Positions 7,060 to 30,059 are shown, counted from the stretch's first letter. The stretch: 64,000 nucleotides of DNA from Luteolibacter sp. (GCA_041686775.1 JAWLDG010000013.1:20612-84611); one strand, 5' to 3'. Program-made: numbers and translations. Notes: generated by a model from the letters alone, not told the origin.

Positions 7060-10000
7060 CTATTGGCCGAGCAACCGGTTTCCGAACAGCAGGAACACGG
7101 CGAGCAGCAGGAAGAGCACGGCGAGGGCGATCTTGACGGTGAAGGTGTGCTTTCGCTGGAAGGAAATGAGCGATTCGGAGCGCAGGCCGCCGTAGGCGAG
7201 GAGGAAGATGACGATGAGCGGGAGGATGAAGGCGAGGTTGTAGATGGCGAGCCAGAGCACGGCGTCGAGGCGGCCCTGGTGGATCTGATAGACGATGGGC
7301 GCGTAAACCTGGCCGGTGCAGGCGAGTTCGAGGAACGAAATGACGATGCCGGAGAGGAAGGCGGCGATGACGAAGCGGCGGGCGCGCGCGCCGCTGCGGA
7401 TCACGCCGCGGATGCGGTCCTTGAGCATGGCGGGGAGTTGGAGGGTCATCTCGTCCATGCGGCCGGCGCGGGCGCTCAGGGCGTCGCGGAACGAAAGCGC
7501 GGCGGCGACCAGTGCGAGCGCGGCGAAAACGAGATTGAGCCACTTTTGCAGTCCGCCGATGCGGGCGTGGAGCACGTCGAGAAACTGATGGAAGATGAAT
7601 CCCGCCGAGAAGTAGGCGAGGAACACGGCGGAAATGAAGGCAAAGCCTGTTAGAAGCATTTCGCGCGGCGTGCGGCGCGCGATCTGGAGGTAGGACAGGA
7701 AGAAGATGATGGTGGCGAAAGCGCAGGGGTTGATGCCGTCGAGCAGGCCGGCAATGAGCACCACCGGCAGGGTGAGCGCCTGATAGCGACGGTCCACCTC
7801 GCGCTCCGCCTCAACCGCCTCGGCGGTTTCGATTTCGCGCCACGAATCGTCCTGATCGATGGCCATGGTGTCGGCCAGCAACTTGGTCACGGCGGCGGGG
7901 GTGATTTCCGGGCCGATGACGAATCCCGCCTGGGTGAAAATCGCCGGCGCGACCGTCTGGCGGGTGGATGGGACATCGAGACGGTTGCAGAGCGCCTGGT
8001 TGAGCACGGTGCCATCGGGCGAGAGGATGTTGTGCTCGATCACGCGCAGCAGCGGGAAGTCGCCGCGCAGGCTGTCGAGCATCTGGCGGGCCTTGGCGCA
8101 GTCGGCGCAGCCGGGTTTGAGGAAATAGACGACATCGAGCGATTCGCGTACGATTTCCCGGTCGTCGTTTTTCTCCGGTGCCAGCAGCGGTCCATCGGTT
8201 GTTTCGGAGTCCGGCACGGCGGCCTTGGCGAGATCGGCGAAGGTGAAGAGGCCGTTCGCGAGTCCCGGATTGACGCGTGCGTTGAGGAGCTTGAGCTTGT
8301 CCGAATCGATCGTGGAGGTGTCGATCACGGTGAGCAGGGGACGCAGCGCGGGGGTGGCGCGTTCGGCGTTTTCCTCGAGCCAATCGGCGATGCGCCGGGC
8401 GGAGTTGTTGTCCTTCGGTTGTTGCGGCAGGAGTTTGGCGAAGGCGTCGAAGTCGATGGACGAACCGCGGGTGAGCAGGGCGAACGAGGACTCGAAGCGG
8501 ACCAGCGGCGAGGGGTCGGTGGCGGCGAGTTTGCCCAAGAGGGCGGTGGTTTCCTCATTGATCCGCGGCGGGGTGGCATTGCGGCCATAGACGTAGTGGT
8601 TGTCGCGCGTCGAGAGGGCATCGGTGAAGTAGTGTTGCCACGAATAGTTCTGGCGGATGACGCGGTCCGGCAGGACGGCGCGGACCAGCGCCTCGGGGTC
8701 TTCGGCGATGGCGGCGGCGGCTTTGTTGAGGTCGGCCGTGCGCAGGCTGAGCAGCGCGTGCCACGCGGCGCGGCGGACGAGAGGTTCGGCGCTCTTGGTG
8801 TTTTGATCTAACAATCTCCGTACGGATGTATCCGCGCAGTGGCGGGCGGCGACGCAGGCGAGCACCTTGAGCGGCACCTCCGCCTGCGTGTCGCCGAGCA
8901 CTTCGACGCACCACGGGCGCATCATCGACGACATCGAGCGGGCGATGGATTCGAAGCGGTAATCGTAAGCCTCGTTCGGTTGCAGCGGCGCGGCGGGATC
9001 GCTGAGGTCCTCGAAGACCAGCGAGATGAGCGCCTTGGCCTGCTCGTTGGAAAGCGCGCAGCGGATCGCGGCCGAGCGGACTTCCGCCACCGGATCGCGA
9101 AGCAGCGCGGTGAGCAGCGGCAACGCGCCGGCGGACGAGGGTTCATACAACTGATAGCAGATGGTCGTTTTGCGGGAGGTGTCGTAATCCGGCAGTTCTT
9201 CGAGGAGTTTGGCATATCCCTCGTCGTGGCCTGCGCGGGCGAGTTGCAGCGCAGCGTGGAATCGCTGGCCGGGCGAGCTTTCGGGCGTGAGCCGGGCTTT
9301 GAGCGCGACGAGAAGTTCGCCCATGTCGGATTGCGGCAGGGATGGAAGCAGCGCGGAGTTCTCCGATGCCTCGCCGAAGGGGACGAGGAAGGCGTCGTAG
9401 AGCGGATCGAGCGCGGTGGGTTCGCGCGATCCTTGGATAAGTTCGGCGACCGTGAGCAGGCGGCGATCGACCGCGCCACCTTTCGACGGCGGCAGTCGAA
9501 GGTTTTCCAAAATGACATCGGCCTTGGCGGGTGCCGCGTCGTCCTTCAGCGCGGCGACCAGCAGGCCGAGCGTGGCGGGGAGTTTGACGTGATCGTCGTC
9601 GGCAGCGAGCGCGCGCAGGGCGATGCAGGCGACGTCGGTGTCGGAATCGGCGGCGAAGCGCTGGAGCAGTTCGACCGGCGGCGAGCTTTCCGAAATGGCG
9701 CGGACGGTCGCCATGCGGACTTCGGCGGGTGAGGCATCGAGCGCGGCGAGCATTTCGGCATCCGGCTTGCGTTTCATGGCACCGTAGGCCGCGAACACCA
9801 TCGGGATCATCGCGGGGTCGTCCGCCATCTTGCGTTTCAACTGCGGCAGGGCGTCGGTGGCCGCGAGTGCGACGCAGGCCTTGATGGCGGCGGAGCGGAC
9901 GAACTCGTCGGGATCGTCGAGCAAGGCGACGGCCCTCCCGCGTGCCGCGCGGGTCTTGCGTTTCTCGATGTATTCGAGCGCGGCGGCGCGGACCCGCCAG

Positions 10001-11109: not shown

Positions 11110-11380
11110 GGCATGCGACGCTGCATTATTAAAACGCGCCGAAGAAACCGCTGAATCACTGGGAACCGCTGAATTCACTGGATCGGTTTATGTGATGACG
11201 TCGGCATTTCCGGCACGCCTTTCAGGGTGCACATCAAAGGGAATCGCAAACCCGGGGTGGTCGTCGCTATCGCACCTCGACCCCGGGCTGTCTTCTGTAA
11301 TCCTTTCAGGATAATGATAATTGGCTTTTTCATTTTCCAATCCATGCAGACATTAGGCTGAATGGCTGTATTCCATTATA

Positions 11381-12028
11381 TCAATGCAGCAGCGCATAGG
11401 CTAGGATGTTGGCGTTGATTTCCATGGCATTGCGGATCTCATTGCCGCCGCAGCAGCAGCAGCCTTCGGCGTTCGAACTGTCGTTGAGTCCTTCCTTGGT
11501 ATAAACCACGACGATCTTGCCGTTGTGGGTGAGACCTTTCAGCGAGACATCCGGGCCGGCGTGGCTGAGCTTGAGTTCCTTGATGCTGAAAATCGTGCGG
11601 AAGATCTCATGGCTGAGCGGGATGTCCTTGAGGCAGTCGTTGCCGAAGATCGCCTTGATCTCGCGCTCGAAGGAACGCGCCCAGGCCTCGTTCGAGCAGG
11701 ATGCGGAGGCGAGCAGGAAGCCGCCGTTTTCGAGATAGCGTTTGAGGTTTTCCCGCTCCTTGGCGGTGAGCAGGAAATCGCTCTCGCCGGTCATGATGAC
11801 GAAGGGGATGCGGAACAGTTCGTCGTCGGCGAGCTTCACCGCCTTGAACCGGCGCTGGGTGGCGATCGAGGTTTTCTGTTGGACGGTGGTCAGGAACTCG
11901 TCGGAGAAACACTTCGAGGTGCGGGTGCCGGCGTAGATGAGATTGCCGCATTCGACGGCACCCTCCTTGGCAAGGGTAAATGCTGAAATGCTTAAAAGCT
12001 GAAATGCTGAAATGAGGAGGAGTTTCAT
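11381..12028 (-). CDS. DUF4159 domain protein (secreted)
   Basis: ORF 11381..12028. Characteristic C-terminal EGCCCCGGNEI motif and a signal peptide. It sits downstream of the MoxR/DUF58/BatA genes, as this family typically does. Confidence 0.8.
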   Translation of the reverse strand: MKLLLISAFQLLSISAFTLAKEGAVECGNLIYAGTRTSKCFSDEFLTTVQQKTSIATQRRFKAVKLADDELFRIPFVIMTGESDFLLTAKERENLKRYLENGGFLLASASCSNEAWARSFEREIKAIFGNDCLKDIPLSHEIFRTIFSIKELKLSHAGPDVSLKGLTHNGKIVVVYTKEGLNDSSNAEGCCCCGGNEIRNAMEINANILAYALLH

Positions 12029-12041
12029 GGTTTTCTTGATA

Positions 12042-14771
12042 TCACGGGGTCAGGAATTTGCGAACGGCGTCGCGGTAGGGTTCGGGGATCAATTCGGGGT
12101 CGGGTGCGGATGAGGAGGTCTGGCGGGTGTCGGTGGGCGGCAGGGTGCCGGACTCGGCGGTGTCCGGCAGCGGTGCCGCGCCGGCGGCCGGGCCATCGCC
12201 GCCATCGCCGCCGGAACCGGGTGCCTGACCGAACTGCATGCGGTTGGGGCCGAGCATCGGCATGTGCATCGGGAAGCCGCCGCCGGGCATGCCCTGGCCG
12301 CCGAGAGCATCGCCCTGGCCGGGTGCGCCGTCGCCGCCGGGGTTTTGTTGGAGCAGGCCTTCGAGGAGTTGTTGGAGGGCTTGATCGAAATCGGGAATGT
12401 TGAACTCGGGTGCATCGCCGCGGGCGGCATTGCAGAACGGGTTGTCCTGCTTGAGCAGGCGTTCGAGCGCGGCACGGGCGAGTTCCGCGTTGTGGAAGGT
12501 TTCGGCGGTGCGGCCGTCGTCGGCATTGCGGGTGGCGGCGTCCATGTGGGTTTCCGGCTCGGCGATATCGAGTTCCAGCAGGAACTGCGAGGCGGATTCG
12601 GCGAGCGGCGCGAGTTGCGGCATGTCCTGCGGCACTGCCTCGATGCGGCGTTTGAGTTCGGCCTTGAAGGAATCGAGCGCTTCGCGGTTCTTGCGCTGCG
12701 TTTCGCCTAACAGAGGGAGCTGGCGGCGGTTGGCATCCATGCCGAGGCGCAGTTCCTCGACGAGCCGGCCGAGACGTTTCACCAAGCTTTCCTGGTTCTC
12801 GTAAATGCGGCGGAATTTTGCCGCCATTTCCAACAGGCGCGCGGCCTCGGCGGCGAGGTCGGCTTGTTGCATCAGTTGCTGTCCCTGTTGCTCGCGCTGG
12901 CCGAGGCGTTCCAACAAGGGTTCGAGCGCGCGGCGGAGCTTTTCGTCATCCATTCCGGGATCGAGGCCGCGCAGGGCGTCGAGGTTTTCGCGCAGAGCCT
13001 CGGCGTTTTTCTCCGCGAGTTCGGCGAGTTGTTTCTCCAACTCGAAGGCGGGGAAATCGTCGGTGAGTTTGTTCATCAACTCGGCCGCTTGTTGGTGGGC
13101 CTCGCGCGCCGCTTCGAGTGCGGCTTCGCGTTGTTCTTCGTTCTCCGCCTCCCGGAGTTGTTCGAGCGTCTTGCGTGCCCGCTCGATGGCATCGCGCGCG
13201 GCATCGAAGCGGGCGCGGAATTGATCGATGGTCGTGCGGGCGCGGATGTAGGCGGCGTATTCGTCCTCGGATATGATGCGGACCCGCGAGATCTCCGACG
13301 CGCCCTGGCCCAGCAGCGAGGGGTTGTGGTCGGAGGCGTCGAGCATCAACTCGATCGTCTGGCCGGGTTCGAGACCGAGTTCGGCGAGGTCGAGATTTTC
13401 GCGGAAATCATAACTGCGTTCTGTTAGAGAGGGAGCGACGAGTCGCGAGCGGTCGCGGAAACCGGCGAGCGTGCGCACGAAATGGATGCGTTGCAGCGCG
13501 AAGTCGTCGCTGGCGCGGCCGGCCACCGGGATCTTCGATTGCGGGGTGGCGAGCATCATCGACGGCGGGCTGTCGAGCACCACGTCCGGCGCCTGGTCGG
13601 GCATGCAGCGGAACGCGAGGTCGAGCGGGCGCGGCGAAGGCGTGCCCCGCAGATCGCGGATGGTCGCGCTGAGACGTCCGGAGCGGGTGGCGGTCCAGGT
13701 GAAAGTGACGCCGTGCGATGATGTGACATCGCCGTCAATGGTGACAGCCTGCGGAGTTTCGCCGGGTGCGGCGGCCGGGGTGAACACACATATGCCGCCG
13801 GACAGCGGGCGGTTGCTGGTGAGTTCCAGCGCGATTTCCGATCCCTCGACTGCGGCGATCTCATTGGTGTCGAGCGCGAACGACGATGGCGGCAGGTTGG
13901 TGTAAACCGGCGGGGTGATGCGCACCTGGCCACCGAGGATGTTGGGTTCCAGCAGGATTTCCACCGGCGTCCATGCCGAGCGCGCGCGACCGCTGGCGAA
14001 GGCGACCTCCACCGGCTCCGTTAGATTTTCCAGGGTGCGCGAGTAGCGCTGCGGGCTTTCGCGGAACGCGTCGCGGCGGAGGATTTCGCCGGTGCGGCTG
14101 CGGCGTACGAGGCACTCGACGGTTTCCTCCGGAGTGCCGCCGGTGATTTCCGTGGCGATGAGGATTTCACCGCCATAGACGACGGCGGGCTTGGCGGGCT
14201 CTATCGCGAAACGCAGCGGACTGTATGGCGGGATGTCGCCGGACGGGTGGAGCAGACGCTGCACGATCACCGCAAACGGCGCGGGCGCGGCGATGCGCAG
14301 GATGCCGGTTGCAATTACCGGCACGAAGATTACGAGCGCAGCGATCTTCAACACGCGTGCATCGATGATGCATCGCGCGGGCAGGGCTGCGAGCGCTTCG
14401 GCGGCTTGGGCGAGACTGCGTTCTGTGAGGAAGCGCGACATCGGTGTGTCGGCGGAATTTCCGTCCAGCGACAACGCGGCGGATGCGGGCGCGCGCTGCG
14501 AGGAAAGCGCATGGTCGGCCCGGCGCGCGGCTTCGCTGGCGGAAACGCGCAGTGCGCGGAACATCATCACCAGTCCGCCAAGGATGGCGATGGCGGCGAG
14601 GACGACGGTGATCCTCGTGCGCGCCGTGGCTTCGAAGGCCAGCGCCGCGTCCACCAGCCCGAACACCAGCCACAACAAACCCGCGACGCCGAACGCCGCG
14701 ATGGCGGCCGCAAGCAACCGCGACGCGCGCAGCAGCGTGCGGACCCGGCGGAGTTGTTGGCGGTAGGTCAT
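12042..14771 (-). CDS. DUF4175-like membrane protein with a long coiled-coil and a Gly/Pro-rich low-complexity tail
   Basis: ORF 12042..14819. I prefer the ATG at 14771 (MTYRQQLRRVRTLL...). It has N-terminal TM helices, an E/R/A/L-rich coiled-coil region, and a C-terminal G/P-rich tail. The position between a BatA/VWA gene and DUF4159 matches the usual arrangement. Confidence 0.6.
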   Translation of the reverse strand: MTYRQQLRRVRTLLRASRLLAAAIAAFGVAGLLWLVFGLVDAALAFEATARTRITVVLAAIAILGGLVMMFRALRVSASEAARRADHALSSQRAPASAALSLDGNSADTPMSRFLTERSLAQAAEALAALPARCIIDARVLKIAALVIFVPVIATGILRIAAPAPFAVIVQRLLHPSGDIPPYSPLRFAIEPAKPAVVYGGEILIATEITGGTPEETVECLVRRSRTGEILRRDAFRESPQRYSRTLENLTEPVEVAFASGRARSAWTPVEILLEPNILGGQVRITPPVYTNLPPSSFALDTNEIAAVEGSEIALELTSNRPLSGGICVFTPAAAPGETPQAVTIDGDVTSSHGVTFTWTATRSGRLSATIRDLRGTPSPRPLDLAFRCMPDQAPDVVLDSPPSMMLATPQSKIPVAGRASDDFALQRIHFVRTLAGFRDRSRLVAPSLTERSYDFRENLDLAELGLEPGQTIELMLDASDHNPSLLGQGASEISRVRIISEDEYAAYIRARTTIDQFRARFDAARDAIERARKTLEQLREAENEEQREAALEAAREAHQQAAELMNKLTDDFPAFELEKQLAELAEKNAEALRENLDALRGLDPGMDDEKLRRALEPLLERLGQREQQGQQLMQQADLAAEAARLLEMAAKFRRIYENQESLVKRLGRLVEELRLGMDANRRQLPLLGETQRKNREALDSFKAELKRRIEAVPQDMPQLAPLAESASQFLLELDIAEPETHMDAATRNADDGRTAETFHNAELARAALERLLKQDNPFCNAARGDAPEFNIPDFDQALQQLLEGLLQQNPGGDGAPGQGDALGGQGMPGGGFPMHMPMLGPNRMQFGQAPGSGGDGGDGPAAGAAPLPDTAESGTLPPTDTRQTSSSAPDPELIPEPYRDAVRKFLTP

Positions 14772-14811
14772 GGGATGATTTGAGATATGCAATTTGAAAT
14801 TTGAAATTGGA
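14772..14811 (-). repeat. 40-nt AT-rich tandem-word intercistronic spacer
   Basis: Coding strand: TGA-TCCAATTTCAAATTTCAAATTGCATATCTCAAATCATCCC-ATG. Tandem ATTTCAA words, about 30 percent GC. No Shine-Dalgarno-like purine tract. Confidence 0.8.
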
Positions 14812-17055: not shown

Positions 17056-17095
17056 GGAATTGATTATTGGAAATTGAATATTGGATATTGTTGGA
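17056..17095 (-). repeat. 40-nt AT-rich tandem-word intercistronic spacer
   Basis: Coding strand: TGA-TCCAACAATATCCAATATTCAATTTCCAATAATCAATTCC-ATG. It has the same length as the 14772-14811 spacer, the same TCCAA start and a similar AATCA..TCC end. Confidence 0.8.
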
Positions 17096-19087
17096 TCAGC
17101 GGGCCGAGCGGAGGTGGATGATGGATTCTGTTAGGAGGAAGGCGAGGGCGAGGAGGGCGAGCCATGGCCAGAGCGGGATGCCGTTGGCGAGCGCGGCCTT
17201 GCGGACGAGCGTGTCCGCGCCGGAATCGATGCGGCCGATGGCCGGGACTTCGGCGACCGTGCGGAGATCGGATTCGATTTCCGGGAAATTGACCGGGCTG
17301 GCGGCGAGTGTCTGGCCGGAGGAAATCCAGCGGTGGATTCCAGGCCGGGCCGGTCCGGGCCACGACCAGGTGGTTCCTCCGGCATCGTGCGATTCGGTTA
17401 GATCGAGCGGTTTTCCATCTGGATCGTCGAGACGGATGGTGGCAGCGAGGTCGGGGTTGGCGGACGACCATGACAGGGCGCTTCCGGATGGAACTTCCAT
17501 CGCATCATTGCCTGCGCGCGGTCTGAGGTGCAGCAGGATTTCCGCGATGGCGGGCAGGAAATTCCCCTGCATCGGCCAATCGGTCTGCGCCGGATTGAGC
17601 GGCAGGTTCCACAGCACGACCGGCGCGCCGTCGGTGAGGAATTCGAGAATCGCCGGGACGCGGTCGGCATACCAGGCAATGGCGCGTCCCGCGGTTGCGG
17701 CGGGCATGGCGATGCGCTCGCGGAAGGTTCCCGCGAAGGGATTGCCGAAATCCCCGCCGCGGAACAACGCAATGGACGGGTGGTTTTCCTCGGGGAGCAC
17801 GTTCCAGCCGTCGGCGCGGGTTTCGCGGGCGAAGGATGCGGGCAACTGGTTTTCCGGACTTCCCGTCAACTCCGCCAGCGCGGCCGGCGGACATCCGGGC
17901 GTGGGACAAACGATGACCGTGGCCCCGGCGGCGCTGAGCGAGCGGAGTTCTCCGGCGTTCTTCCCGTCCCATGCGGCGATGAACCGGTAGTCCGGTGCGC
18001 GTCCTCCGCTCTCCGCGGAGGTGCTTTCGAGCCATGGCAAGGCGGCGGCCAGTTTGCCTAACAACTCCGCCGCGGGCTCCGCGCCGCCGGTATCGATCGC
18101 CAGTCGCAGCGACTCGCGCACCGACACCACCGTGTGACGCGCGTCGTCGTCCGGAAAGGCGTCTGCCTCGGTGGCAATGGTGACCGGCAGCGGCCCCGCG
18201 CCGGCGGCGCGCAGCGGGAATGCGATTTCCGTTTCTCCCCAGGCGGGGATTTCGGCGGCCTGCGTCTGGCGCGCGCCATCGGCATCCATGGTGAGATTCG
18301 CGCGCACGGCTTCCGGCGAGAAATTCCGGACGCGGGCGAGCAGGGTGATTTCCTGACCCACCACCGGAGCGGACGGCTGGGCGAGCAGGCCGGTGACCGC
18401 CACGTTGGCCGGCGCGGAGGAGGCGACCTGTTGGGCGTGCACATTGACATCGGGCGGCATCTGGATTTCCAGATCGCGCCAGGCGGATTGCTGGAAATCG
18501 GATAGAATCACCAGCTCGCGGCGACCGCGCGCGGCGGCGAGTTGGCGCAGTGCCGCATCGATCGCCGGGCTGGCCGGGCCGGGCTCGGGCACCGGCCGAG
18601 CTTCGTCGAGTTTTTCCAACAGGAAGGAAATGTTAGGGCTCGGCTCGGGAAACACGGCGTCAGGGGAGGCATCGATCCAGATCAGGTTGGCGGTCGTCGG
18701 ATTGAGCGATTCGAGGTATTCCGCGGCACGGGCCTGTGCCACATCGAAGCGGCTGCCCGCCCCCTCGCGCGCGGCCATCGAGGCCGAGCGGTCGATCAAC
18801 ACCACCACCGCCACGTCCTCGCCGGGCAGCGCCGCCGATTTGGAAATGACCACCGGCGCGATGAATGCCCCGGCAAGCGCGAGCAACGCCAGGGTGCGCA
18901 GGATCAACAACCAGCGGTCCCGCGGCCGCCGCACCCGCGCCGACGAACGCATGACTCTCCGCAGGAACTCGATGTTGGAAAACCGATAGACCGGTGGTCG
19001 CGCCCGCGAGATCAAATGCACCAGCAAAGGCACACCGGCCAATCCGAGCAGGCCGATCAATGCGGGGTGTTGGAGGAGGAAGGTCAT
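17096..19087 (-). CDS. BatA-domain (N-terminal double-TM) / VWA protein
   Basis: ORF 17096..19108. I prefer the ATG at 19087 (MTFLLQHPALIGLLGLAGVPLLVHLI is a typical BatA N-terminus). The first 7 codons of the longer ORF lie inside an intergenic tandem repeat. VWA MIDAS segment VVVLIDRSASM. Confidence 0.8.
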   Translation of the reverse strand: MTFLLQHPALIGLLGLAGVPLLVHLISRARPPVYRFSNIEFLRRVMRSSARVRRPRDRWLLILRTLALLALAGAFIAPVVISKSAALPGEDVAVVVLIDRSASMAAREGAGSRFDVAQARAAEYLESLNPTTANLIWIDASPDAVFPEPSPNISFLLEKLDEARPVPEPGPASPAIDAALRQLAAARGRRELVILSDFQQSAWRDLEIQMPPDVNVHAQQVASSAPANVAVTGLLAQPSAPVVGQEITLLARVRNFSPEAVRANLTMDADGARQTQAAEIPAWGETEIAFPLRAAGAGPLPVTIATEADAFPDDDARHTVVSVRESLRLAIDTGGAEPAAELLGKLAAALPWLESTSAESGGRAPDYRFIAAWDGKNAGELRSLSAAGATVIVCPTPGCPPAALAELTGSPENQLPASFARETRADGWNVLPEENHPSIALFRGGDFGNPFAGTFRERIAMPAATAGRAIAWYADRVPAILEFLTDGAPVVLWNLPLNPAQTDWPMQGNFLPAIAEILLHLRPRAGNDAMEVPSGSALSWSSANPDLAATIRLDDPDGKPLDLTESHDAGGTTWSWPGPARPGIHRWISSGQTLAASPVNFPEIESDLRTVAEVPAIGRIDSGADTLVRKAALANGIPLWPWLALLALAFLLTESIIHLRSAR

Positions 19088-19104
19088 GGTGGATTGAACA
19101 TCGA

Positions 19105-19128
19105 ACATCGAACGTCCAACATCGAACG
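19105..19128 (-). repeat. 24-nt element GTTCGATGTTGGACGTTCGATGTT (copy 1), part of a longer TTCGATGTT tandem tract at 19096-19132
   Basis: The reverse complement of 19105-19128 matches 62237-62260 at 23 of 24 positions. It lies 18-41 nt upstream of the BatA-like start (19087) in sense orientation. Confidence 0.8.
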
Positions 19129-19174
19129 TCGAAGTGGAAGAAGTGCGTCAGTGAAGGAAGTGCATGGTAACGAA

Positions 19175-19195
19175 TGTAGCGGCGGTCTATGACCG
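19175..19195 (+). repeat. 21-nt exact repeat TGTAGCGGCGGTCTATGACCG (copy 1), small palindromic REP-like unit
   Basis: Identical to 63707-63727. It contains the imperfect hairpin CGGCGGTC-TAT-GACCGTCG. Confidence 0.8.
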
Positions 19196-19358
19196 TCGGG
19201 TCGGTGGTCAGCGGTCAGCGGTCATATCGTATATTTGAAATATGCGATATGTTCATGGTTCGATGATATGGATTGGCGTGTAGTGAATGCGACTGGTTCT
19301 GTTGGGAAATCATGGTGCATGTTTGGCAACTAATGACAGATGACCGTTGACTGCTGAC

Positions 19359-20231
19359 TCATTCCCTAAGCCTGTCAAAGAGCGAGAAATACGATTCACC
19401 GGTGGAGGCGAGGGCGTAGTCGGCGTTGCGGGAGGTGGCGAGGGAGCGGAGGGCGCGGGAGTGGGTGAGGAGTTCGCGGTTCCAGGCGTCGCGGATGGTT
19501 TGCGGGTGGGCGGTCAGTTGGTGGCCGGTTTCCATGTCGGTGAAGCGCGAGAGGCCGCGGTCTTCGAGTTGGATTTCGGCGGGGTCGAGGATGTGGAAGA
19601 GGTGGATGCGGAAGCCGCGGTGCAGATAGGGGTTGAGCGAGCGGAAGAGGGCGGCGGGGTCGTCGAAGAAATCGGACAGGATGACGAGCGTGCCCTTGCG
19701 GCGCAGCAGCGGCTGGGCGCGGGCGAGGGTATCGACGATCGATGTGCCGGAGCCGGGCTGGTTGTTCTCGAGCGTGTTGAGCAGGTCGTTGAGGTGCTGG
19801 CGGGTCGAGGCGGGCGGCACGAAACGGCGGATGCCCTGGTCGAAGAGCGTGAGCGAAACGCGGTCGTTGCGCGAGACGACCCACCAGGCGAGCGCGGCGG
19901 AGAAGAACGAGGCGTATTCGAGCTTGTTGAGCCTGCTGTCATTTCCGCAGAAACCCATCGACGCCGAGCAATCGAGGAAGATATGGCATTCCAGGTTGGT
20001 TTCCTGCTCGAAGGTGCGGAGGAACAACTTGTCGTTGCGCGCGAACACCCGCCAATCGACGCGCGCGGGGTCGTCACCGGGGACGTATTGGCGGAACTCG
20101 TGGAACTCGATCGACGACCCGCGTTGGTGCGAGCGGTGGCGGCCGGCCAGATAGCCCTCGACCATCGCCTTGGCTCCGAACTCATAGTTCTTGAGCCGGC
20201 GGATATCGGCGGGATCGAGGAAGCGGGGCAT
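19359..20231 (-). CDS. DUF58 domain protein (MoxR partner)
   Basis: ORF 19359..20231. Canonical DUF58 motifs: GRHRSHQRGSSIEFHEFRQYVPGDDPARVDWRVFAR and FLDCSASM. Confidence 0.9.
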   Translation of the reverse strand: MPRFLDPADIRRLKNYEFGAKAMVEGYLAGRHRSHQRGSSIEFHEFRQYVPGDDPARVDWRVFARNDKLFLRTFEQETNLECHIFLDCSASMGFCGNDSRLNKLEYASFFSAALAWWVVSRNDRVSLTLFDQGIRRFVPPASTRQHLNDLLNTLENNQPGSGTSIVDTLARAQPLLRRKGTLVILSDFFDDPAALFRSLNPYLHRGFRIHLFHILDPAEIQLEDRGLSRFTDMETGHQLTAHPQTIRDAWNRELLTHSRALRSLATSRNADYALASTGESYFSLFDRLRE

Positions 20232-20342
20232 GGGAAGAAGTGAAAAGTGATCTGTGATCGGTGATCAGTTTGCGGTAGGGCCTCGCCGCGCCGACTTGTC
20301 GCCAACGGCGTGAGGTGTGAATGAGGAGTTCGTCAGTGATGG

Positions 20343-21329
20343 TTAGTTAATGGAATCGACGAGTTTGGCGATGATCTGGTCGGTGGTGATGCCTTCGCCG
20401 GTGGCGTTGTAGTTGCCGATGATGCGGTGGCGGAGCACGGGCAGGGCGACGTCGCGGACTTCCTCGACGGAGGCGTTCGGGTTGCCGCGCAGCAGGGCGA
20501 GCGCGCGGGCGGCGCGGGCGAGGCATTGCGACGCGCGCGGTCCCGCGCCGTAGGCGATGTATTGTTTCACCTCCTCGGTCGCGTGCGGCGAGTCGGGGCG
20601 GGTGGAGTGGACGAGTTTGAGGATCGACTGGATCACGGAGTCGGGCAGGGGGACGTCGATGGCGGCTTCCTGCAAGGCGATGACACGCCGGGCGTCTAAC
20701 AGAGTCTCAGCCTGTGGCGCGGTGTGACCGGTGGTGCGCTTGATGATCTCGGCCTCCTCGTCCATGCCGGGATAGCCGATGTTGAGTTGGAAGAAGAAGC
20801 GGTCGAGCTGCGCCTCAGGCAGCGGATAGGTGCCTTCGTGCTCGATCGGGTTCTGGGTGGCGAAAACGATGAACGGTTCTTCCAATCGCCGTGTCTGGCC
20901 GTTCACGGTGACTTGTTTTTCCTGCATCGCCTCCAGCAGCGCGGCCTGGGTTTTCGGCGGCGTGCGGTTGATTTCATCGGCGAGGATCAGATTGGCGAAA
21001 ACCGGTCCCGGCACGAACTGGAAGTTGCGTTCGCCGGAACCGCCGGTCTGTAAAATTTCCGAGCCGACGATGTCGGTGGGCATCAGGTCCGGAGTGAACT
21101 GGATGCGCTGGAATTTCAGGCCGAGGATGCGGCCGAGCGTGGCGACGAGCAGTGTTTTGGCGAGCCCCGGCACGCCGACGATGAGGCAGTGGCCGCGGCA
21201 GACGAGCGAGGTGAGGAGCTGCTCGACGATTTCCTCCTGGCCGACGATCACGCGCGCGGTCTCGCGGCGGATGTTGGTGACGGTTTGCTGGATTTCCTCC
21301 CACTGCTGGGCGGCGTTGGTATCGGACAT
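20343..21329 (-). CDS. MoxR-family AAA+ ATPase
   Basis: ORF 20343..21590. The true start is the ATG at 21329 (MSDTNAAQQWEEIQ...). Walker A GVPGLAKT, MoxR-typical IQFTPDLMPTDIVG, and Walker B ILADEINR. Confidence 0.92.
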   Translation of the reverse strand: MSDTNAAQQWEEIQQTVTNIRRETARVIVGQEEIVEQLLTSLVCRGHCLIVGVPGLAKTLLVATLGRILGLKFQRIQFTPDLMPTDIVGSEILQTGGSGERNFQFVPGPVFANLILADEINRTPPKTQAALLEAMQEKQVTVNGQTRRLEEPFIVFATQNPIEHEGTYPLPEAQLDRFFFQLNIGYPGMDEEAEIIKRTTGHTAPQAETLLDARRVIALQEAAIDVPLPDSVIQSILKLVHSTRPDSPHATEEVKQYIAYGAGPRASQCLARAARALALLRGNPNASVEEVRDVALPVLRHRIIGNYNATGEGITTDQIIAKLVDSIN

Positions 21330-21330
21330 G

Positions 21331-24243
21331 TTATTCGTGGTTGGGATTGAAAATGGCGGCGTGCTCGCGGGCGAGGCACTCGATTCGGAGATAGAAGGTT
21401 TTGGATTCGGCGGAGGGAAGGAAATCATCCAGCAGGGCTTTGAATTCGTCCGGATTTTCCTCGATGCCCCACATGGAGATTTCCACATCTTCGGCAGGAG
21501 CCACCAATTTGCCATCGCGCAGCCACAAGGTGGAGGATTTGCCGCCTTGGCCGTCGGTGGCGATGAGCGCGATGACGCCTTGGATGTCACTGTGCTCGGT
21601 CATCGTCTGGGCGTGGCGTTGGAAGACGGAATCCATGATTCGGCGCCGCGGGTCCATGTCGCTCCCGTGCTTTTCGCCATCGGCGTCTTCCGTATTTTCC
21701 GCGGTGGGCGGTTCCATCCGATGGGCGAGGATTTCCATACCCGGGCCGAGCGCGGATTTCTGGATCGCGACCAGGACCGGGGAATGGGTGGCGATGTCGC
21801 CGGCGAGCGACTGCAAATGGGTTTTGAGGTTCTCGGAATCGATGGTGAATCCGGTGTCGATTCCGAACACGCCGGGTTGATCCGTGATGCCATAAAACGA
21901 TTGGGCGGAGCGGTTGAGGATACGGTTTTTGAGCCGGAGGAATTCCGTCGGCAGCGGCGGATCGACCGGCTCCTTGAGCCATGCCATCCACTTCACACGT
22001 TCGTCTGGACTGAGTTTTCCGATGTGTGCCTGGATCTCCGAAGTGGGAAGTCGGGAGGTTTCGGCGACGATTTCCTTGAGGCGTTCGTCCGTGACACGCG
22101 AGGCGTCGGGGACGGGTGGCACTGTGGAACCGGAGATGCGTGCGGTGGCGCGGTCGTAGAGGTAATCGGCCAGCGGTTTGCCAAGGGCGGGAGCCGCTTC
22201 CTGCAGCGAAAAGGCTTCGGAACGCGAGACACTGGTTTCAAAGGCACTGGCGGCCAACTTGCCAATGGTGGGCGAGTCGCCGAGATCGAAGCGTCCGCGC
22301 AGCTTTTCGGGCACCTCGCGGTCGTCCGCCAACAGCTTGCGCCAGATGATGGCTTCGGTGCCGGAAATCGCGCGCGGCGGGGAAGGGGCGGTTTCCTCAT
22401 CCTCGCCCGATTCCGTTGTGTCCGCTTCCTCATCCTGCGGCCATTCGATGTTATATGTGGCGGCGATGAACAGGCAGCGCACGGCGGGATCGACGGTGGT
22501 GTTGGCTCCTTCCAGATAAATTTCGAGTTGTTTGGGTGCTTCCTGTGTTTCGATCAATGCGGCAAGTCCCTGGATGCCGGCTTCGGCTTCATCCGGTTCG
22601 CCGCGGGCGATGTTGCGGGCGATCGAGCGCGGCGACTCGGGGCTGGCGAGCGATTGCAGCGACTTGAGCATCTTGTCGATGCCGCCGGCCTGGCGGATTT
22701 CCCATGAGCGCTCGATGTCGTCGCCGGCCAGTTCGGCGTATTCGCGGACGCGTTTGGCATAGGAATCGTAGAACGCCTTTCCCTCGGCGCGGCGCTGGCG
22801 CAGGTAGATGGTGACTGGCTGGATGAAATTGAGCGGGTTCTCCGCCGCCAGCACGTGTTTCTCGAACATCGCGCGGGCCTCGGGCGAGGTGGATGACGCG
22901 AGGCGGACGGCGACTTGCGAGGCTTGTTGGGCCGATCCCTGGCTCATGAAAACCAGCAGGAGATCGTCGCGGCTTTTGTCCCTGTTCTGTTTCCAGAAAT
23001 CCATGGCGAGCGAACGCAGGCTGGTGGCATCGGCTTCGTCGAGCTGGTCGTCCGGGTCCGGCAGGGTGGCGGCGAGCAACTGGCAGGCGAGTTCTCCCCG
23101 GGTGGCGGGACGCGGCATCTGATGGTAGGCCCGCAGGATGAGCTCCTCCTCGGATTGGCGCGACGAGTAGTAAACGTGTCCGCCCCTGTTCTGATAGGAA
23201 AGCACCGTCAAAAACGAATCGTCGGCCAAGGCGGCGAGCACGGGCAGGGCATCCATGCCGCATTCAAGCAAAGTGGCGTGGACTCCCTGAAGCGGCTGTT
23301 CCGGATCGCCACCGCCCAACAGCCAGAGGTCGGGAATGTAGGAGCCGGAACTCATATGATAATGCCGCATGTCCGGACGGCCCCGGCGGGGCTGGTTATC
23401 CTGCGGTTTCTGCCAGGTTGTGACGGCGGCGAGCGCGTCCGGGTCGAGCGTCACACCCTCGATCTCCGGCTCCGGCAGTGGCTCGCCTGCGGCCTGTTTG
23501 GCGAGTTGCGGCATCAACATGGCAAGCGCCTGGCCCTCGCGCCAGCCGCGCGGGAAGCGCTGGTTCAGCTCGCCGATCGCCTCGTGCAGTGCGGCGAAGT
23601 CGGGCTTTTCGAAAAAGTCAGCGATCGCTTTGCGATAGGCCGACGAGGCGATCGTGCCGACGGCGGAATCCACCACGCCCTCCGCGTCTGGTGCCAGGGC
23701 GAACACGGTGGTGGCCAGGCGATTGGCGAGGTCGGTTTTTCCGGCCTGATGAATCTGCGCCGCGAAGACCAGCAGGTTGCCGCTGTTCGGATTCTGGAAA
23801 CCGGACGACATCTCATTGCGGAACAGGCTCTCCACCTCGTCCGTCTTCTCGCGCAGGGCGGCGATCAGGGCATCGACGTCTTTTTCGAGATCCGCATCGG
23901 TTTTCGGTATTTGAGAGGCGGCGGATTCAACCGGCTCCACCCCGCCCATCGGCAGCACCGATGCCTTGTCGTCTTCTTCGTTCGCCGGGATCGCCCATGC
24001 GCCGCCATCCATGCCTTTGGTCAGCTCGCGCAGATAGTAGTGCCGGTATTGCGAGGAGTTGCCGTGCCTCACCCAGCGGGCGCCTTTTCCCATTTCCGGC
24101 AGACCGAGCTTGATCAGGCGCTCGAAGCCATCGGAGAAGTCCGGAGGTGATTGGTCGGGAGCGCTTTCCGCCGCCCCTTGCGCGACTGCCAGCCACGAAG
24201 CCGCGGATATTGCCAGAAATCGCAAGCCGATCCGACCGTGCAT
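21331..24243 (-). CDS. 970-aa secreted hypothetical protein, first gene of the MoxR cluster
   Basis: ORF 21331..24243. Signal peptide MHGRIGLRFLAISAASWLAVAQGAAE. Its stop TAA (21333-21331) is one nucleotide from the MoxR ATG (21329). I recognise no domain signature. It looks mostly helical and acidic. Confidence 0.7.
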   Translation of the reverse strand: MHGRIGLRFLAISAASWLAVAQGAAESAPDQSPPDFSDGFERLIKLGLPEMGKGARWVRHGNSSQYRHYYLRELTKGMDGGAWAIPANEEDDKASVLPMGGVEPVESAASQIPKTDADLEKDVDALIAALREKTDEVESLFRNEMSSGFQNPNSGNLLVFAAQIHQAGKTDLANRLATTVFALAPDAEGVVDSAVGTIASSAYRKAIADFFEKPDFAALHEAIGELNQRFPRGWREGQALAMLMPQLAKQAAGEPLPEPEIEGVTLDPDALAAVTTWQKPQDNQPRRGRPDMRHYHMSSGSYIPDLWLLGGGDPEQPLQGVHATLLECGMDALPVLAALADDSFLTVLSYQNRGGHVYYSSRQSEEELILRAYHQMPRPATRGELACQLLAATLPDPDDQLDEADATSLRSLAMDFWKQNRDKSRDDLLLVFMSQGSAQQASQVAVRLASSTSPEARAMFEKHVLAAENPLNFIQPVTIYLRQRRAEGKAFYDSYAKRVREYAELAGDDIERSWEIRQAGGIDKMLKSLQSLASPESPRSIARNIARGEPDEAEAGIQGLAALIETQEAPKQLEIYLEGANTTVDPAVRCLFIAATYNIEWPQDEEADTTESGEDEETAPSPPRAISGTEAIIWRKLLADDREVPEKLRGRFDLGDSPTIGKLAASAFETSVSRSEAFSLQEAAPALGKPLADYLYDRATARISGSTVPPVPDASRVTDERLKEIVAETSRLPTSEIQAHIGKLSPDERVKWMAWLKEPVDPPLPTEFLRLKNRILNRSAQSFYGITDQPGVFGIDTGFTIDSENLKTHLQSLAGDIATHSPVLVAIQKSALGPGMEILAHRMEPPTAENTEDADGEKHGSDMDPRRRIMDSVFQRHAQTMTEHSDIQGVIALIATDGQGGKSSTLWLRDGKLVAPAEDVEISMWGIEENPDEFKALLDDFLPSAESKTFYLRIECLAREHAAIFNPNHE

Positions 24244-24280
24244 GGGGTCGATCCCTAGCAGCCGCCATCTATCGGGTGAA

Positions 24281-24305
24281 GCCGCGATTTTTAAAAATTC
24301 GCGGC
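24281..24305. promoter_or_regulatory. Near-perfect palindrome GCCGCGA-TTTTTAAAAAT-TCGCGGC
   Basis: A 7-bp GC arm on each side of an AT core, 38-62 nt upstream of the 970-aa gene start codon on the minus strand. Confidence 0.35.
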
Positions 24306-24490
24306 TCTTATGGCCAAGCTGGAAGCAGATCGCGACTGGTGCCTGTCATCCGGCTCGGGACGCGCATGACTCAGCGTATGGGCCGGGTGGCCGACCGTTT
24401 GTGAATAACTTGGCGAAAACTTCCAAAAGGTCTGTTTTTCAAGTGTTTCGTCGCTGATTTCGAAAATGGATCGAGTCATCAAATCTGAAA

Positions 24491-24508
24491 TTCAATCGGC
24501 CGATTGAA
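24491..24508. promoter_or_regulatory. Perfect 18-bp palindrome TTCAATCGGCCGATTGAA (candidate operator)
   Basis: Read directly from the sequence. It lies in the AT-rich 660-bp divergent region between the MoxR-cluster start (24243, -) and the 24904 (+) gene. Confidence 0.4.
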
Positions 24509-24903
24509 AATAATCAAAATCATGCTCCGATGTGTGTCAGGGAGTGCTGCTTGTCGGTGAAAGCAAATCACAAATTACTGAATAAGTGATATTTGCAGAC
24601 AAATTTACACTTTTTGATGATATTGTGATTTTGATGGCGGGTAGATCGTGCCTGCTATCCTGGTAAGCGGATCGCCCATGCATGAGCGGCTGAATGCGGT
24701 GATTTTGCCACCGGATGTGGGGCAGTCGTACGATTGTGAACAACTTGCGAAAATTGTGCTGAGGCGGGTGTTTTGGCGGGTGTGGCCATTGATTTTCAAC
24801 TGTCAGGCATTTCGGCTTTACGGGACGGGCGCAAGCGGGCAGAGACATGCCGCGTCCCGTGCCGGTCGGCACGGGCGAAACACACATCCCATCACGACCC
24901 ATC

Positions 24904-25335: not shown

Positions 25336-25359
25336 GCTTGCGTGTCGATGGCTGTTAAC

Positions 25360-27615: not shown

Positions 27616-27670
27616 TGCGCGAAACTGAGTGAGGCCGCGGGCTCTTCCAAGCTCCGAGTTGGGCGGATGA

Positions 27671-29929: not shown

Positions 29930-30059
29930 GATCACTAGGCGGTTTTCAACCGTGTTCGCGGCTTTGTCCAACGAATCCCCCCGGGCATCGACACGCAAAA
30001 GCCGGGAAAGAGAATATCGTCTCGACGCGTTTCGGGAAAATCCCCATTTCCAAACCCGC

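Follow-up and report, generated by a model that had tools for sequence, protein, structure and literature searches.

A conserved eight-gene MoxR/DUF58/VWA/DUF4159 block of Verrucomicrobiales that may encode a periplasmic thiol/selenol redox complex

Introduction

Several systems that pair a MoxR-type ATPase with a VWA protein serve dedicated clients: MxaRSACKL (methanol dehydrogenase), CoxDEF and NorQD are of this kind, and the methanol dehydrogenase client is periplasmic. A gene neighbourhood of the composition MoxR-DUF58-TIGR02226/DUF4159-DUF4175 occurs in other phyla, where it is uncharacterised. RavA-ViaA is also a system of a MoxR ATPase and a VWA partner (PMC3893208). The Bat operon, which is known from Bacteroides fragilis and has homologues in spirochaetes, Francisella and Riemerella, has been proposed, so far without proof, to export reducing power to the periplasm, according to the summary in PMC3557215; Leptospira strains with deleted bat genes showed no oxidative-stress phenotype (PMC3557215), which counts against a redox reading. 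The transport of reducing power across the membrane is the function of the DsbD family, whose members hand electrons from two cysteines in the membrane to a thioredoxin-like domain in the periplasm and are often encoded in clusters with the genes of their substrates (PMC3322552).

Here, we have analysed a window of 64,000 nucleotides from Luteolibacter sp., in which positions 7060-24243 of the minus strand are occupied by a block of eight co-oriented ORFs, referred to as g1 to g8. In comparison with the Bat operon, the block shares MoxR, DUF58 and a BatA-type VWA protein with another VWA membrane protein after it, all in the same orientation, and its predicted complex also faces the periplasm. 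The two differ in that BatC (TPR), BatD (oxygen-tolerance domain) and BatE (SH3/TPR) are absent from the eight products in the Pfam and NCBIfam searches; the block has instead a VWA/GATase1-like protein, a DUF4175-like protein, a DUF4159 protein, a 970-aa solenoid protein and a HEAT-thioredoxin-DsbD-like protein. With the neighbourhood of other phyla, the block has in common the core families AAA_3, DUF58, BatA N-terminal domain, DUF4159 and, weakly, DUF4175, whereas its modules are distributed over four genes, with g1 and g8 as additions; it is a variant of the known MoxR/VWA neighbourhood, extended by these two genes. Unlike MxaRSACKL, CoxDEF, NorQD and RavA-ViaA, it has no dehydrogenase or reductase gene.

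An earlier note on this DNA had described the core of MoxR, DUF58, VWA, DUF4175 and DUF4159 as lacking an established mechanism. The domains of this core are present, with DUF4175 weakly supported, and our full-text literature search has returned no paper that treats DUF4159 or DUF4175 together with MoxR; searches for MoxR with DsbD or CcdA, and for selenoproteins with MoxR, have returned nothing relevant.

Results

Layout and conservation of the eight-gene block

The coordinates of the block, its neighbours and its main features are listed in Table 1. The set of eight minus-strand genes, their order and their domains had been read from the sequence in the earlier note, and have been borne out by a check of the ORFs and by the Pfam and NCBIfam searches, some of the domains weakly; the start of MoxR has been corrected to position 21329, giving 328 aa. 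On both sides, the block ends at a strand switch.

Table 1. Features of the block and its borders; positions are counted from the first nucleotide of the window.
Feature	Position	Strand	Description
Convergent gene	ends 6911	+	borders the block beyond the end of g8
g8, 1349-aa protein	7060..11109	-	signal peptide, about 950 aa of HEAT solenoid, thioredoxin fold, 6-TM DsbD/CcdA-like domain
g8 membrane domain, six helices	7063..7827	-	Cys1129 (NPC, TM1; 7723-7725), Cys1264 (ELACTGQ, TM4; 7318-7320)
g8 thioredoxin-fold domain	7855..8148	-	C1001-A-D-C1004 (8098-8109), invariant
Hairpin in the g7-g8 gap	11236..11288	-	GC-rich, CCCGGGG...CCCCGGG, with T-rich tail; read in the sequence, present in the MFE fold
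g7, exported DUF4159 protein, 215 aa	11381..12028	-	DUF4159 (PF13709) 4.1e-29
g7 CCCC motif, codons 190-193	11450..11461	-	fourth codon TGC in the window
g6, 909-aa DUF4175-like membrane protein	12042..14771	-	three TM segments, periplasmic region, coiled coil
g5, VWA/GATase1-like membrane protein	14812..17055	-	N-terminal TM hairpin, VWA, ThuA/GATase1-like domain, C-terminal TM
g4, BatA-type/VWA protein	17096..19108	-	BatA 1.2e-10, TIGR02226 2e-11, VWA_2 2.3e-7
g3, DUF58 protein, VWA-like domain, cytoplasmic	19359..20231	-	DUF58 1e-43, VWA_2 5.9e-9
g2, MoxR-type AAA+ ATPase, 328 aa, cytoplasmic	20343..21329	-	AAA_3 and AAA_lid_2
g1, 970-aa exported protein	21331..24243	-	signal peptide, mostly alpha-solenoid body, C-terminal alpha/beta domain
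Divergent gene	starts near 24904	+	96% identical to a DUF6941 protein in one related locus (L084)

Our comparison of related loci covers the Verrucomicrobiales (Luteolibacter, Haloferula, Rubritalea, Persicirhabdus, Prosthecobacter and many MAGs). All eight genes occur in identical order in 47 loci; among the loci with enough sequence, MoxR is immediately preceded by g1 in 55/55, and the DUF4159 gene g7 is immediately followed by g8 in 54/54. This adjacency persists down to amino-acid identities of 26-35% for g8 and about 22% for g1, and the genes beyond the block are never conserved among the compared loci. The estimated median gaps across the loci are short, 24 nt between g1 and g2 and about 6 nt between g7 and g8; in the window, a single nucleotide separates the stop codon of g1 from the ATG of MoxR (TAA c ATG). 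Judged by gene order, the block is one conserved, eight-gene, operon-like unit of Verrucomicrobiales, and both of its extra genes, g1 and g8, belong to the MoxR unit: their co-occurrence and conserved synteny with MoxR and DUF4159 within the order, next to unconserved flanks, agree with the suggestion of the earlier note that the first and last genes could define a lineage-specific variant.

The gap between g7 and g8 measures 271 nt in the window (270 in the earlier note), and its hairpin, judged from the sequence, may be a weak terminator or attenuator; with a gap of this length and a terminator-like hairpin, g8 may be partly independent in the window. The fold of the gap as a whole is not exceptional (z = -1.56), and the hairpin was not called by our promoter/terminator consensus scan, in which the sites were no more numerous than in shuffled sequence and none was located in the gaps. 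An Rfam scan of the region has returned nothing meaningful.

With regard to localisation, which has been assessed by a hydropathy scan and by inspection of the N-termini of g1 and g8 and the C-terminus of g5, only MoxR (g2) and DUF58 (g3) are cytoplasmic by predicted topology; all other products carry a signal peptide or TM helices, as had been noted before. This predicted topology fits the MoxR-chaperoned envelope complex that was suggested on the same basis, the complex itself being still a postulate.

The ATPase, the VWA proteins and the DUF4175-like protein

The MoxR protein g2 is assigned by two Pfam matches above the curated cut-offs (AAA_3, 4.5e-62, 208 bits vs a cut-off of 27; AAA_lid_2, 9.4e-18, 64 bits vs a cut-off of 22.7), and its identity across the loci is 60-85%; it also matches the bpMoxR model (1.7e-10), the AAA_3 match being far stronger. 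Three proteins of the block, i.e. g3, g4 and g5, are MIDAS-bearing VWA proteins. The motif of g3 is DCSAS, at residue 87. In g4, an N-terminal double-TM hairpin, whose two segments are joined by a basic loop, is followed by the VWA domain (MIDAS DRSAS, residue 106) and an extensive periplasmic part, and a further TM segment anchors the C-terminus (TM segments 12-30, 69-87 and 640-658 in the hydropathy scan). The window copy of g5 has no significant Pfam match, only weak ones; among its orthologues, ThuA is matched in 17/21 and VWA in 5/21 (best 2.7e-5), together with weak matches to VWA_CoxE. The MIDAS motif of g5, DSSES, is invariant at residues 77-81 (invariant columns D77, S79, S81, D171, G172 and T175), and its C-terminal TM segment ends with an RRR tail.

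The assignment of g6 to DUF4175 (PF13779) is drawn from its orthologues, of which 4/29 have a weak Pfam match (best 3.2e-4), and the window copy has none. At the position of its Cys780 (12432-12434), many orthologues have a CxxC motif and four loci have an in-frame TGA; the motif is absent from many other orthologues, and the window copy keeps only one of the cysteines.

The exported protein g1

The product of g1 has no match to any Pfam or NCBIfam family. Its AF2 model (pLDDT 79) has been compared with the PDB by Foldseek, where no match was found below an E-value of 0.015 and the top matches were importin-like and other generic alpha-solenoids, so no function can be assigned to it. The family comprises 595 representative clusters at E<=1e-3, of about 950-1050 aa, all of them named “hypothetical”; it is uncharacterised and its taxon labels are only from Verrucomicrobiota. 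We have also considered whether g1 and the HEAT region of g8 are paralogues; the profile-profile comparison gives a probability of 1.8%, i.e. no homology, and the two are not paralogues.

The DsbD-like protein g8

The N-terminal solenoid of g8 is recognised by Pfam as HEAT_2 (3.3e-28), and more than 260 full-length homologues exist, for which the JGI naming is HEAT/CcdA/glutaredoxin. The thioredoxin-fold domain is supported by a Glutaredoxin match in a separate Pfam scan of the C-terminal part (25.8 bits vs a cut-off of 22.9), and by the comparison of its AF2 model with thioredoxins (Foldseek probability 1.0, TM 0.55-0.65). The six helices of the membrane domain are seen in both the AF2 model and the hydropathy scan; the loop charges fit the positive-inside rule with a periplasmic N-terminus, and this pattern, together with the signal peptide, places the thioredoxin domain in the periplasm. 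Four cysteines of the protein (C1001 and C1004 in the thioredoxin domain, C1129 and C1264 in the membrane domain) are invariant in 54/54 sequences.

The protein g8 resembles DsbD, CcdA and ScsB in that its inverted-repeat membrane domain has cysteines at similar places in TM1 and TM4, its CxxC belongs to a thioredoxin-like domain on the periplasmic side, and candidate substrate genes are found nearby. CcdA also has six helices, but in g8 they are fused to other domains; the thioredoxin fold is C-terminal to the membrane domain in DsbD and ScsB, and N-terminal in g8, where the place of the DsbD alpha domain is taken by the HEAT solenoid. At the level of sequence, the resemblance to DsbD_TM and DsbD_2 is marginal: the window copy of the membrane domain matches no DsbD model, and the matches of the orthologues are sub-threshold (DsbD_2 in 7/28, best 7.4e-6; DsbD_TM in 3/28, 1.2e-5). 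The profile of the membrane domain has no sequence match in the PDB. This architecture, with its invariant cysteines, fits a protein that carries reducing power across the membrane to the periplasm.

Two further observations concern this part of the protein. In the Foldseek search with the C-terminal model, the thioredoxin domain dominates the result. The membrane domain also has a weak match to ArsG, and DsbD_2-type domains are found as well in proteins that are annotated as transporters.

The cysteines of the DUF4159 protein g7 and a candidate selenocysteine

The DUF4159 assignment of g7, whose fold we take to be GATase1-like, is clear (102 bits vs a gathering score of 25.9), and g7 is a homologue of PDB 4i66 (5e-11). 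Residues 190-195 form the motif CCCCGG. The cysteines C27, C40, C111 and C190-192 are conserved in 56-57/57 sequences, while the fourth position of the motif, C193, is Cys in 48/57 and TGA in the remaining nine. Among the exported products, only g7 and g8 have universally conserved cysteines: g1 and g5 have no Cys at >=50% conservation, and those of g4 and g6 are only partly conserved (32-34 of 53-64 sequences). The CCCC motif and the Cys cluster are absent from the two DUF4159 proteins from outside the block that we have examined, i.e. 4i66 and the one stray DUF4159 copy in the PLSDB plasmids, which is located in a Corynebacterium resistance region.

The in-frame TGA at the fourth codon of the motif is found in nine related genomes and nine metagenome contigs (18 sequences), the TGA-bearing relatives being marine; in the contigs, the TGA, the hairpin described below and the gene context are all as in the genome loci. 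In g6, the TGA of L036, L038, L046 and L047 replaces the first Cys of the CxxC. Both TGA codons are aligned with Cys and the downstream reading frame is conserved past them (g7, nine loci and nine contigs; g6, four loci), and across all genes and loci no other in-frame TGA is seen where homology extends. A residue that alternates in this way between Cys and Sec is usually redox-active. The TGA of g7 is followed by a covarying, SECIS-like hairpin with a 6-bp stem and a GUC loop that starts 24 nt after the UGA; this hairpin is not found in Cys-type loci: 5-6 of its 6 pairs form in all TGA loci, vs a mean of 2.8 in the 48 Cys loci (96% of cells paired, compensatory changes at two pairs). In g6, hairpins with a GGUC loop are found 17-18 nt downstream of the TGA in L038 and L046, the case of L036 being less clear.

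According to the published bSECIS consensus, the apical loop is located 16-37 nt after the UGA and has a G in its first positions (PMC13188914); the loop start of the g7 hairpin (24 nt after the UGA, G then U) fits this consensus. Neither PF13709 nor PF13779 is among the more than 110 selenoprotein families that are tabulated in the same 2026 review (PMC13188914). Reassignment of UGA to Trp has been reported in some Verrucomicrobiota (PMC13462651); for the TGA loci we have rejected it, since no such interruption is seen in their other large genes and the TGAs coincide with Cys at two sites only. No tRNA-Sec has been found in the TGA-bearing loci, where only ~22 kb per genome were scanned, a length at which the result is uninformative. 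Apparently, then, the g7 orthologues of some relatives carry a candidate selenocysteine at the fourth position of the CCCC motif; the window copies of g7 and g6 have Cys and not TGA.

The sequence G-C-C-C-U-G-G of these orthologues puts the candidate selenocysteine beside a cysteine near the C-terminus, as in the GCUG tail of mammalian thioredoxin reductase and in the prokaryotic “CU” families; g7 differs from these vicinal Cys-Sec selenoproteins in its fold, and in the window by its use of Cys.

Discussion

Proposed mechanism

The addition of an electron-delivery protein and a Cys-rich partner to a MoxR/VWA cluster suggests a thiol-based redox machine of the envelope. We propose, with a probability of roughly 0.5, that the block encodes a periplasm-facing thiol/selenol redox complex, assembled by MoxR, DUF58 and the VWA proteins and fed by the DsbD-like g8. 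The redox link between g8 and the Cys-rich DUF4159 protein comes from the present analysis and is absent from the earlier note.

In this proposal, g8 would accept electrons from cytoplasmic thioredoxin and relay them through the cysteine pair of its membrane domain to the CxxC on its periplasmic side, the direction of flow being taken from that of the family; the CxxC would then reduce the vicinal Cys/Sec centre of g7 and, where present, the CxxC or UxxC of g6, with the HEAT solenoid as a docking surface. The proteins g4, g5 and g6 would form an inner-membrane scaffold that holds the VWA, GATase1-like and coiled-coil domains toward the periplasm, while the cytoplasmic MoxR and DUF58 would work on the short, basic loops that these three proteins expose to the cytoplasm, in assembly or remodelling, a role that is suggested by the resemblance to other MoxR/VWA pairs acting on dedicated clients. 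The product of g1 would be a lineage-specific periplasmic solenoid subunit that is made together with MoxR. The complex would probably serve to reduce an oxidised substrate in the envelope, which could be a peroxide, a disulfide, a sulfenic acid, or a metal or metalloid that is thiophilic; this is the role of “reducing power in the periplasm” that was once proposed for the Bacteroides Bat operon.

Alternative explanations

The conserved cysteines could also be the ligands of a metal, an explanation that we consider unlikely on balance: MoxR, DUF58 and the VWA proteins would insert a metal or metal-sulfur cofactor into the Cys site of DUF4159, g8 would keep the ligand cysteines reduced until loading, and the output would be catalysis or metal handling by the metallated g7 and not thiol-disulfide turnover. 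The three MIDAS-bearing VWA proteins, the five to seven invariant cysteines of g7, four of them vicinal, and the weak VWA_CoxE matches of the g5 orthologues are in its favour, and so is the maturation of metal sites by the MoxR/VWA systems CoxD/E/F, NorQ/D and MxaRSACKL. Moreover, several prokaryotic selenoproteins with CU or UxxC motifs bind metal (PMC13188914, table). On the other hand, no metal-binding domain or transporter has been recognised in the block, and the g7 motif resembles the vicinal Cys-Sec redox centres as much as it does a metal site. Metal assembly and redox relay are not separated by the present data, and the two can both hold.

The contribution of g8 could, alternatively, be unrelated to that of its neighbours, as a general supplier of periplasmic reductant (for cytochrome c maturation or disulfide isomerisation) that is merely located beside the MoxR cluster, with g1 as an unrelated neighbour kept by inertia. 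CcdA-type proteins normally belong to housekeeping pathways (PMC3322552), and the gap and hairpin ahead of g8 in the window would agree with such independence; but the invariable adjacency of both genes at low identity, amid outside genes that all differ, the median spacing between g7 and g8, the single nucleotide between g1 and the start of MoxR, and the 950-aa HEAT extension, which argues for a dedicated partner, make this account improbable.

We see a smaller chance still for a structural or adhesive envelope complex without redox chemistry, in which the cysteines of g7 would form structural disulfides and g8 would be only a folding isomerase. VWA domains and solenoids are typical modules of protein-protein interaction, and no catalytic domain has been recognised in Pfam or NCBIfam; these points have to be set against the apparent Cys-to-Sec replacement and the SECIS-like hairpins at two sites, such replacement being typical of residues with a catalytic redox role, in contrast to those that form structural disulfides. 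Finally, a conflict or anti-phage system, of the kind of the MoxR-VWA ternary systems (PMC7159879), is very improbable in spite of the bpMoxR match of g2, since AAA_3 scores far better, PADLOC finds no defence-system match apart from similarity of a generic kind to coiled coils and HEAT repeats, the products include neither a beta-propeller nor an effector domain, and the related loci come from many genera across the order.

Implications

Returning to the thiol/selenol redox complex, a broader generalisation can be put forward tentatively, at less than even odds: the whole MoxR-DUF58-VWA-DUF4175-DUF4159 neighbourhood might be a periplasmic thiol/selenol redox machine, in which DUF4159 would be a new family of (seleno)cysteine oxidoreductases with a vicinal CCC[C/U] motif, the DUF4175-like protein would carry a second, C/UxxC centre, and the HEAT-thioredoxin-6TM protein would be a fourth, dedicated architectural class of the DsbD family.

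MoxR/DUF58/VWA (Bat-like) clusters occur in many bacteria, including pathogens, and, as PMC3557215 summarises, their function has stayed unassigned since the first description of Bat. The Verrucomicrobiales version adds a DsbD-type transporter that is fixed beside a DUF4159 protein carrying a motif of four vicinal cysteines, and natural swaps between Cys and candidate Sec at the g7 motif and at the CxxC of the DUF4175-like protein; both features point to specific residues and to a specific chemistry. If the proposal is true, the prokaryotic selenoproteome would gain two families and the DsbD superfamily a new domain architecture, and there would be a concrete molecular route for the old idea that Bat-like systems deliver reducing power to the periplasm.

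Organization of the eight-gene block

The minus strand between positions 7060 and 24243 of the window carries eight open reading frames, numbered here g1 to g8 in their order along that strand. The weaker domain labels that an earlier, sequence-only note had proposed (for g5, g6 and the membrane domain of g8) hold at the level of the families only, the window copies of g5 and g6 being without a significant match: ThuA is matched by 17 of 21 g5 orthologues and VWA by five of 21 (best 2.7e-5), with an invariant MIDAS motif; DUF4175 is matched by four of 29 g6 orthologues (best 3e-4); and the membrane domains of g8 match DsbD_2 in 7/28 and DsbD_TM in 3/28 orthologues. Judged from a hydropathy scan and the N-terminal sequences, all products other than MoxR and DUF58 have a signal peptide or TM helices. 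The MoxR gene is present as described, but its start has been corrected to 21329, one nucleotide past the g1 stop (TAA c ATG); likewise, the gap between g7 and g8, formerly given as 270 nt, measures 271 nt. This gap contains a GC-rich hairpin (11236-11288, minus strand; CCCGGGG...CCCCGGG) with a T-rich tail, which may act as a lineage-specific attenuator or terminator; long g7-g8 gaps also occur in the related loci L005 and L042.

Genes of the block (window coordinates) and in-frame TGA codons (coordinates of the related loci and metagenome contigs, L-numbers)
Feature	Position	Strand	Description
g1	21331-24243	-	970 aa; no Pfam or NCBIfam family
g2	20343-21329	-	MoxR; AAA_3 4.5e-62 and AAA_lid_2
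g3	19359-20231	-	DUF58 1e-43
g4	17096-19108	-	BatA N-terminal double-TM domain 1.2e-10, TIGR02226 2e-11, VWA_2
g5	14812-17055	-	VWA/GATase1-like; window copy without significant match
g6	12042-14771	-	DUF4175-like; window copy without significant match
g7	11381-12028	-	DUF4159 4.1e-29; CCCCGG at residues 190-195
g8	7060-11109	-	HEAT_2 3.3e-28; Glutaredoxin 25.8 bits (cut-off 22.9; scan of the C-terminus alone)
g7 in-frame TGA	L036:8061-8063, L037:14451-14453, L038:15675-15677		fourth Cys of CCCC
g7 in-frame TGA	L040:15443-15445, L042:15124-15126, L044:15859-15861		fourth Cys of CCCC
g7 in-frame TGA	L046:15707-15709, L048:15543-15545, L051:15606-15608; also L085-L093		fourth Cys of CCCC
g6 in-frame TGA	L036:7066-7068, L038:14634-14636, L046:14441-14443, L047:9477-9479		equivalent to window 12432-12434

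The block is bordered on one side by a convergent plus-strand gene that ends at 6911, and on the other side by an intergenic region of about 650 nt and lower G+C upstream of g1 (24244-24903), where the promoter is probably located. The divergent plus-strand gene 24904-25338 (143 aa) shares 96% identity with a DUF6941 protein of the close relative L084, and this neighbour is common to close relatives only. Further out (26536-30100, minus strand; 4499-6160, plus strand), an M42 aminopeptidase, a GH95 glycoside hydrolase and a subtilase are encoded, which are unrelated to the cluster and without synteny in other genomes; the outer neighbours of the block in the window (the M42 peptidase, a 302-aa ORF and a 390-aa ORF) have been found in none of the fetched loci.

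Conservation of the block in Verrucomicrobiales

Conservation has been assessed within Verrucomicrobiales: a one-genome-per-species scan, anchored on the alignment of g5 homologues, has yielded 80 loci with 10-kb flanks, against which all window proteins have been searched. Besides many Verrucomicrobiales MAGs, the loci represent Luteolibacter, Haloferula, Rubritalea, Persicirhabdus and Prosthecobacter; the closest one is that of a Luteolibacter MAG, with 95% amino-acid identity. Wherever the contig is of sufficient length, g1 to g8 are colinear and on a single strand, and the complete set occurs in 47 loci. The first and last genes had been regarded as unusual additions whose link with the core would be refuted by an absence of synteny; g1, however, directly precedes MoxR in 55/55 loci (HMM from g1 orthologues), and g8 directly follows DUF4159 in 54/54. 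Within Verrucomicrobiales, both are fixed parts of an eight-gene unit. Two distant, independently found g1 homologues are likewise located directly upstream of MoxR. The median spacing is estimated at 24 nt between g1 and g2 and at 6 nt between g7 and g8; the 271 nt of the window lie at the upper end of the g7-g8 values.

Interruptions of the block at g5 occur in three loci and could reflect rearrangements or MAG assembly artefacts: g5 stands alone in L020, 8.7 kb of unrelated genes separate g4 from g5 in L023, and g6-g8 are missing after g5 in L069. In L084 (g5 91% identical), g5 and g6 are separated by an inserted sulfatase gene (12281-13726). The sulfatase begins with the same eight residues as g6 (MTYRQQLR), as though the insertion had copied the start of g6. 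Two ENA contigs of 150 and 180 kb (L001, L002) have MoxR in two pieces and g4-g6 fragmented into short called genes, which looks like long-read assembly indel errors rather than true pseudogenes. Five loci (L040, L047, L078, L032, L065) carry a typical Verrucomicrobiales block despite the labels Cryomorphaceae, Vicinamibacteria, Victivallis vadensis or Akkermansia muciniphila (from lake samples), and their contigs are probably mis-binned or mislabelled.

The fastest-evolving member of the block is g1, with 22-38% identity across Verrucomicrobiales. Its family, as retrieved by profile from 1.84 billion representative proteins, comprises 595 clusters with a uniform length of about 950-1050 aa, whose named members are all "hypothetical" and all from Verrucomicrobiota. 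The AF2 model of g1 (pLDDT 79) is for the most part an alpha-solenoid with a C-terminal alpha/beta domain, without a significant PDB match; homology to the HEAT part of g8 has been ruled out by comparison of the two.

Anatomy of g8

Behind its signal peptide, the g8 protein consists of a HEAT-repeat region of about 950 aa, a domain with a thioredoxin-type fold (Foldseek probability 1.0) whose CxxC (C1001, C1004) is invariant, and six C-terminal membrane helices that carry invariant cysteines in TM1 (C1129, NPC) and TM4 (C1264, ELACTGQ); the loop charges are consistent with a periplasmic N-terminus. Proteins of the DsbD/CcdA/ScsB family use two membrane cysteines to relay electrons of cytoplasmic thioredoxin to a thioredoxin-like domain in the periplasm, and are often encoded in clusters with their substrates (PMC3322552). 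The anatomy of g8 fits this defining logic, with six helices as in CcdA, but its domain arrangement differs from all three classes of that study: the thioredoxin fold precedes the membrane domain, and the HEAT solenoid takes the place of the DsbD alpha-domain. It is predicted to work like a DsbD-family transporter; the cysteines and the partner domain of the family are present, and membership by sequence is only marginal.

Conserved cysteines and in-frame TGA codons

Universally conserved cysteines are restricted, among the six exported products, to g8 (four) and g7. Of 57 g7 sequences, 56-57 keep C27, C40, C111 and C190-192, and 48 keep C193; two DUF4159 proteins outside the group (PDB 4i66 and a plasmid copy) have no such cluster. 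The cysteines of g4 and g6 are partly conserved (32-34 of 53-64 sequences), and g1 and g5 have none at 50% conservation or above.

In the nine g7 sequences without C193, including that of the Persicirhabdus sediminis isolate genome, the fourth cysteine codon is an in-frame TGA, downstream of which the frame GG[ND]EI...NANI.AYA.LH is conserved up to the true stop. Across all eight genes and all loci, in-frame TGA codons inside homology occur only here and at one g6 site, where four loci have TGA in place of the first Cys in a CxxC-like motif; this motif is variable, absent in many Luteolibacter and represented in the window by a single Cys780. Genome-wide UGA reassignment has been excluded, because other large genes of the TGA loci are intact.

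Every g7 TGA locus has a 6-bp hairpin, ([GA][AG][UC]UCG) GUC (CGA...), that lies 18 nt downstream of the TGA; five or six of the six pairs form in 9/9 TGA loci, whereas 48 Cys-type loci average 2.8, and 96% of the cells are paired, with compensatory changes at two pairs. The apical loop begins 24 nt after the UGA with G then U, a position and sequence within the bacterial SECIS consensus (PMC13188914). Hairpins also occur 17-18 nt downstream of the g6 TGA in L038 (GAGGGA-GGUC-UCCCUC) and L046 (GGGGGA-GGUC-UCCCCC); a hairpin is present in L047 as well, L036 being ambiguous. A pattern scan of metagenome contigs has added nine CCC-TGA-GG[ND]EI sequences, all with the hairpin and all in the same gene context. 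Cys/Sec pairs usually mark catalytic redox residues. The TGA, the conserved frame and the covarying hairpin argue for DUF4159 as a candidate selenoprotein (CCCU) family, unlisted in a 2026 review whose more than 110 tabulated families include neither PF13709 nor PF13779 (PMC13188914).

In Rubritalea profundi (L055), g7 (14923-15567) has TGC at this position and keeps the SECIS-like hairpin sequence with 5/6 pairs, suggestive of a recent change from Sec to Cys; its g8 (15609-19612) is interrupted by a frameshift, either as a pseudogene or through a sequencing error.

Proposed function of the block

We infer both the direction of the redox reaction and a pairing between g7 and g8: g8 would import reducing equivalents and hand them on, by way of its CxxC, to the vicinal Cys/Sec centre in g7 and, where present, to the C/UxxC of g6. 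The products of g4, g5 and g6 would form the membrane scaffold; each starts with a TM hairpin whose cytoplasmic loop is basic, and their large VWA, GATase1-like and coiled-coil regions are on the periplasmic side. Through the basic loops, cytoplasmic MoxR and DUF58 may assemble or remodel the complex, as other MoxR/VWA pairs do for dedicated clients, and g1 would be a periplasmic subunit specific to the lineage. Most likely, the output is the reduction of an oxidised envelope substrate, a role once proposed for the Bat operon, the MoxR/VWA cluster of Bacteroides aerotolerance (PMC3557215). The core shares the MoxR/DUF58/BatA-VWA theme with that operon, but BatC, BatD and BatE have not been recovered in the block, which is therefore a relative of the Bat operon and not the Bat operon itself.

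The main alternative, compatible with envelope reduction, is metal loading: the Cys cluster of g7 would receive a metal from the MoxR/VWA module, with g8 keeping the ligand cysteines reduced. It is less likely that g8 is a general reductase placed next to the core by chance, or that the complex is purely structural; a defence system is also less likely, PADLOC having returned no match. Our literature search has found no paper that ties MoxR clusters to DsbD-type proteins or selenoproteins; with the residues described here, the old question of what MoxR clusters do becomes one of specific, residue-level experiments.
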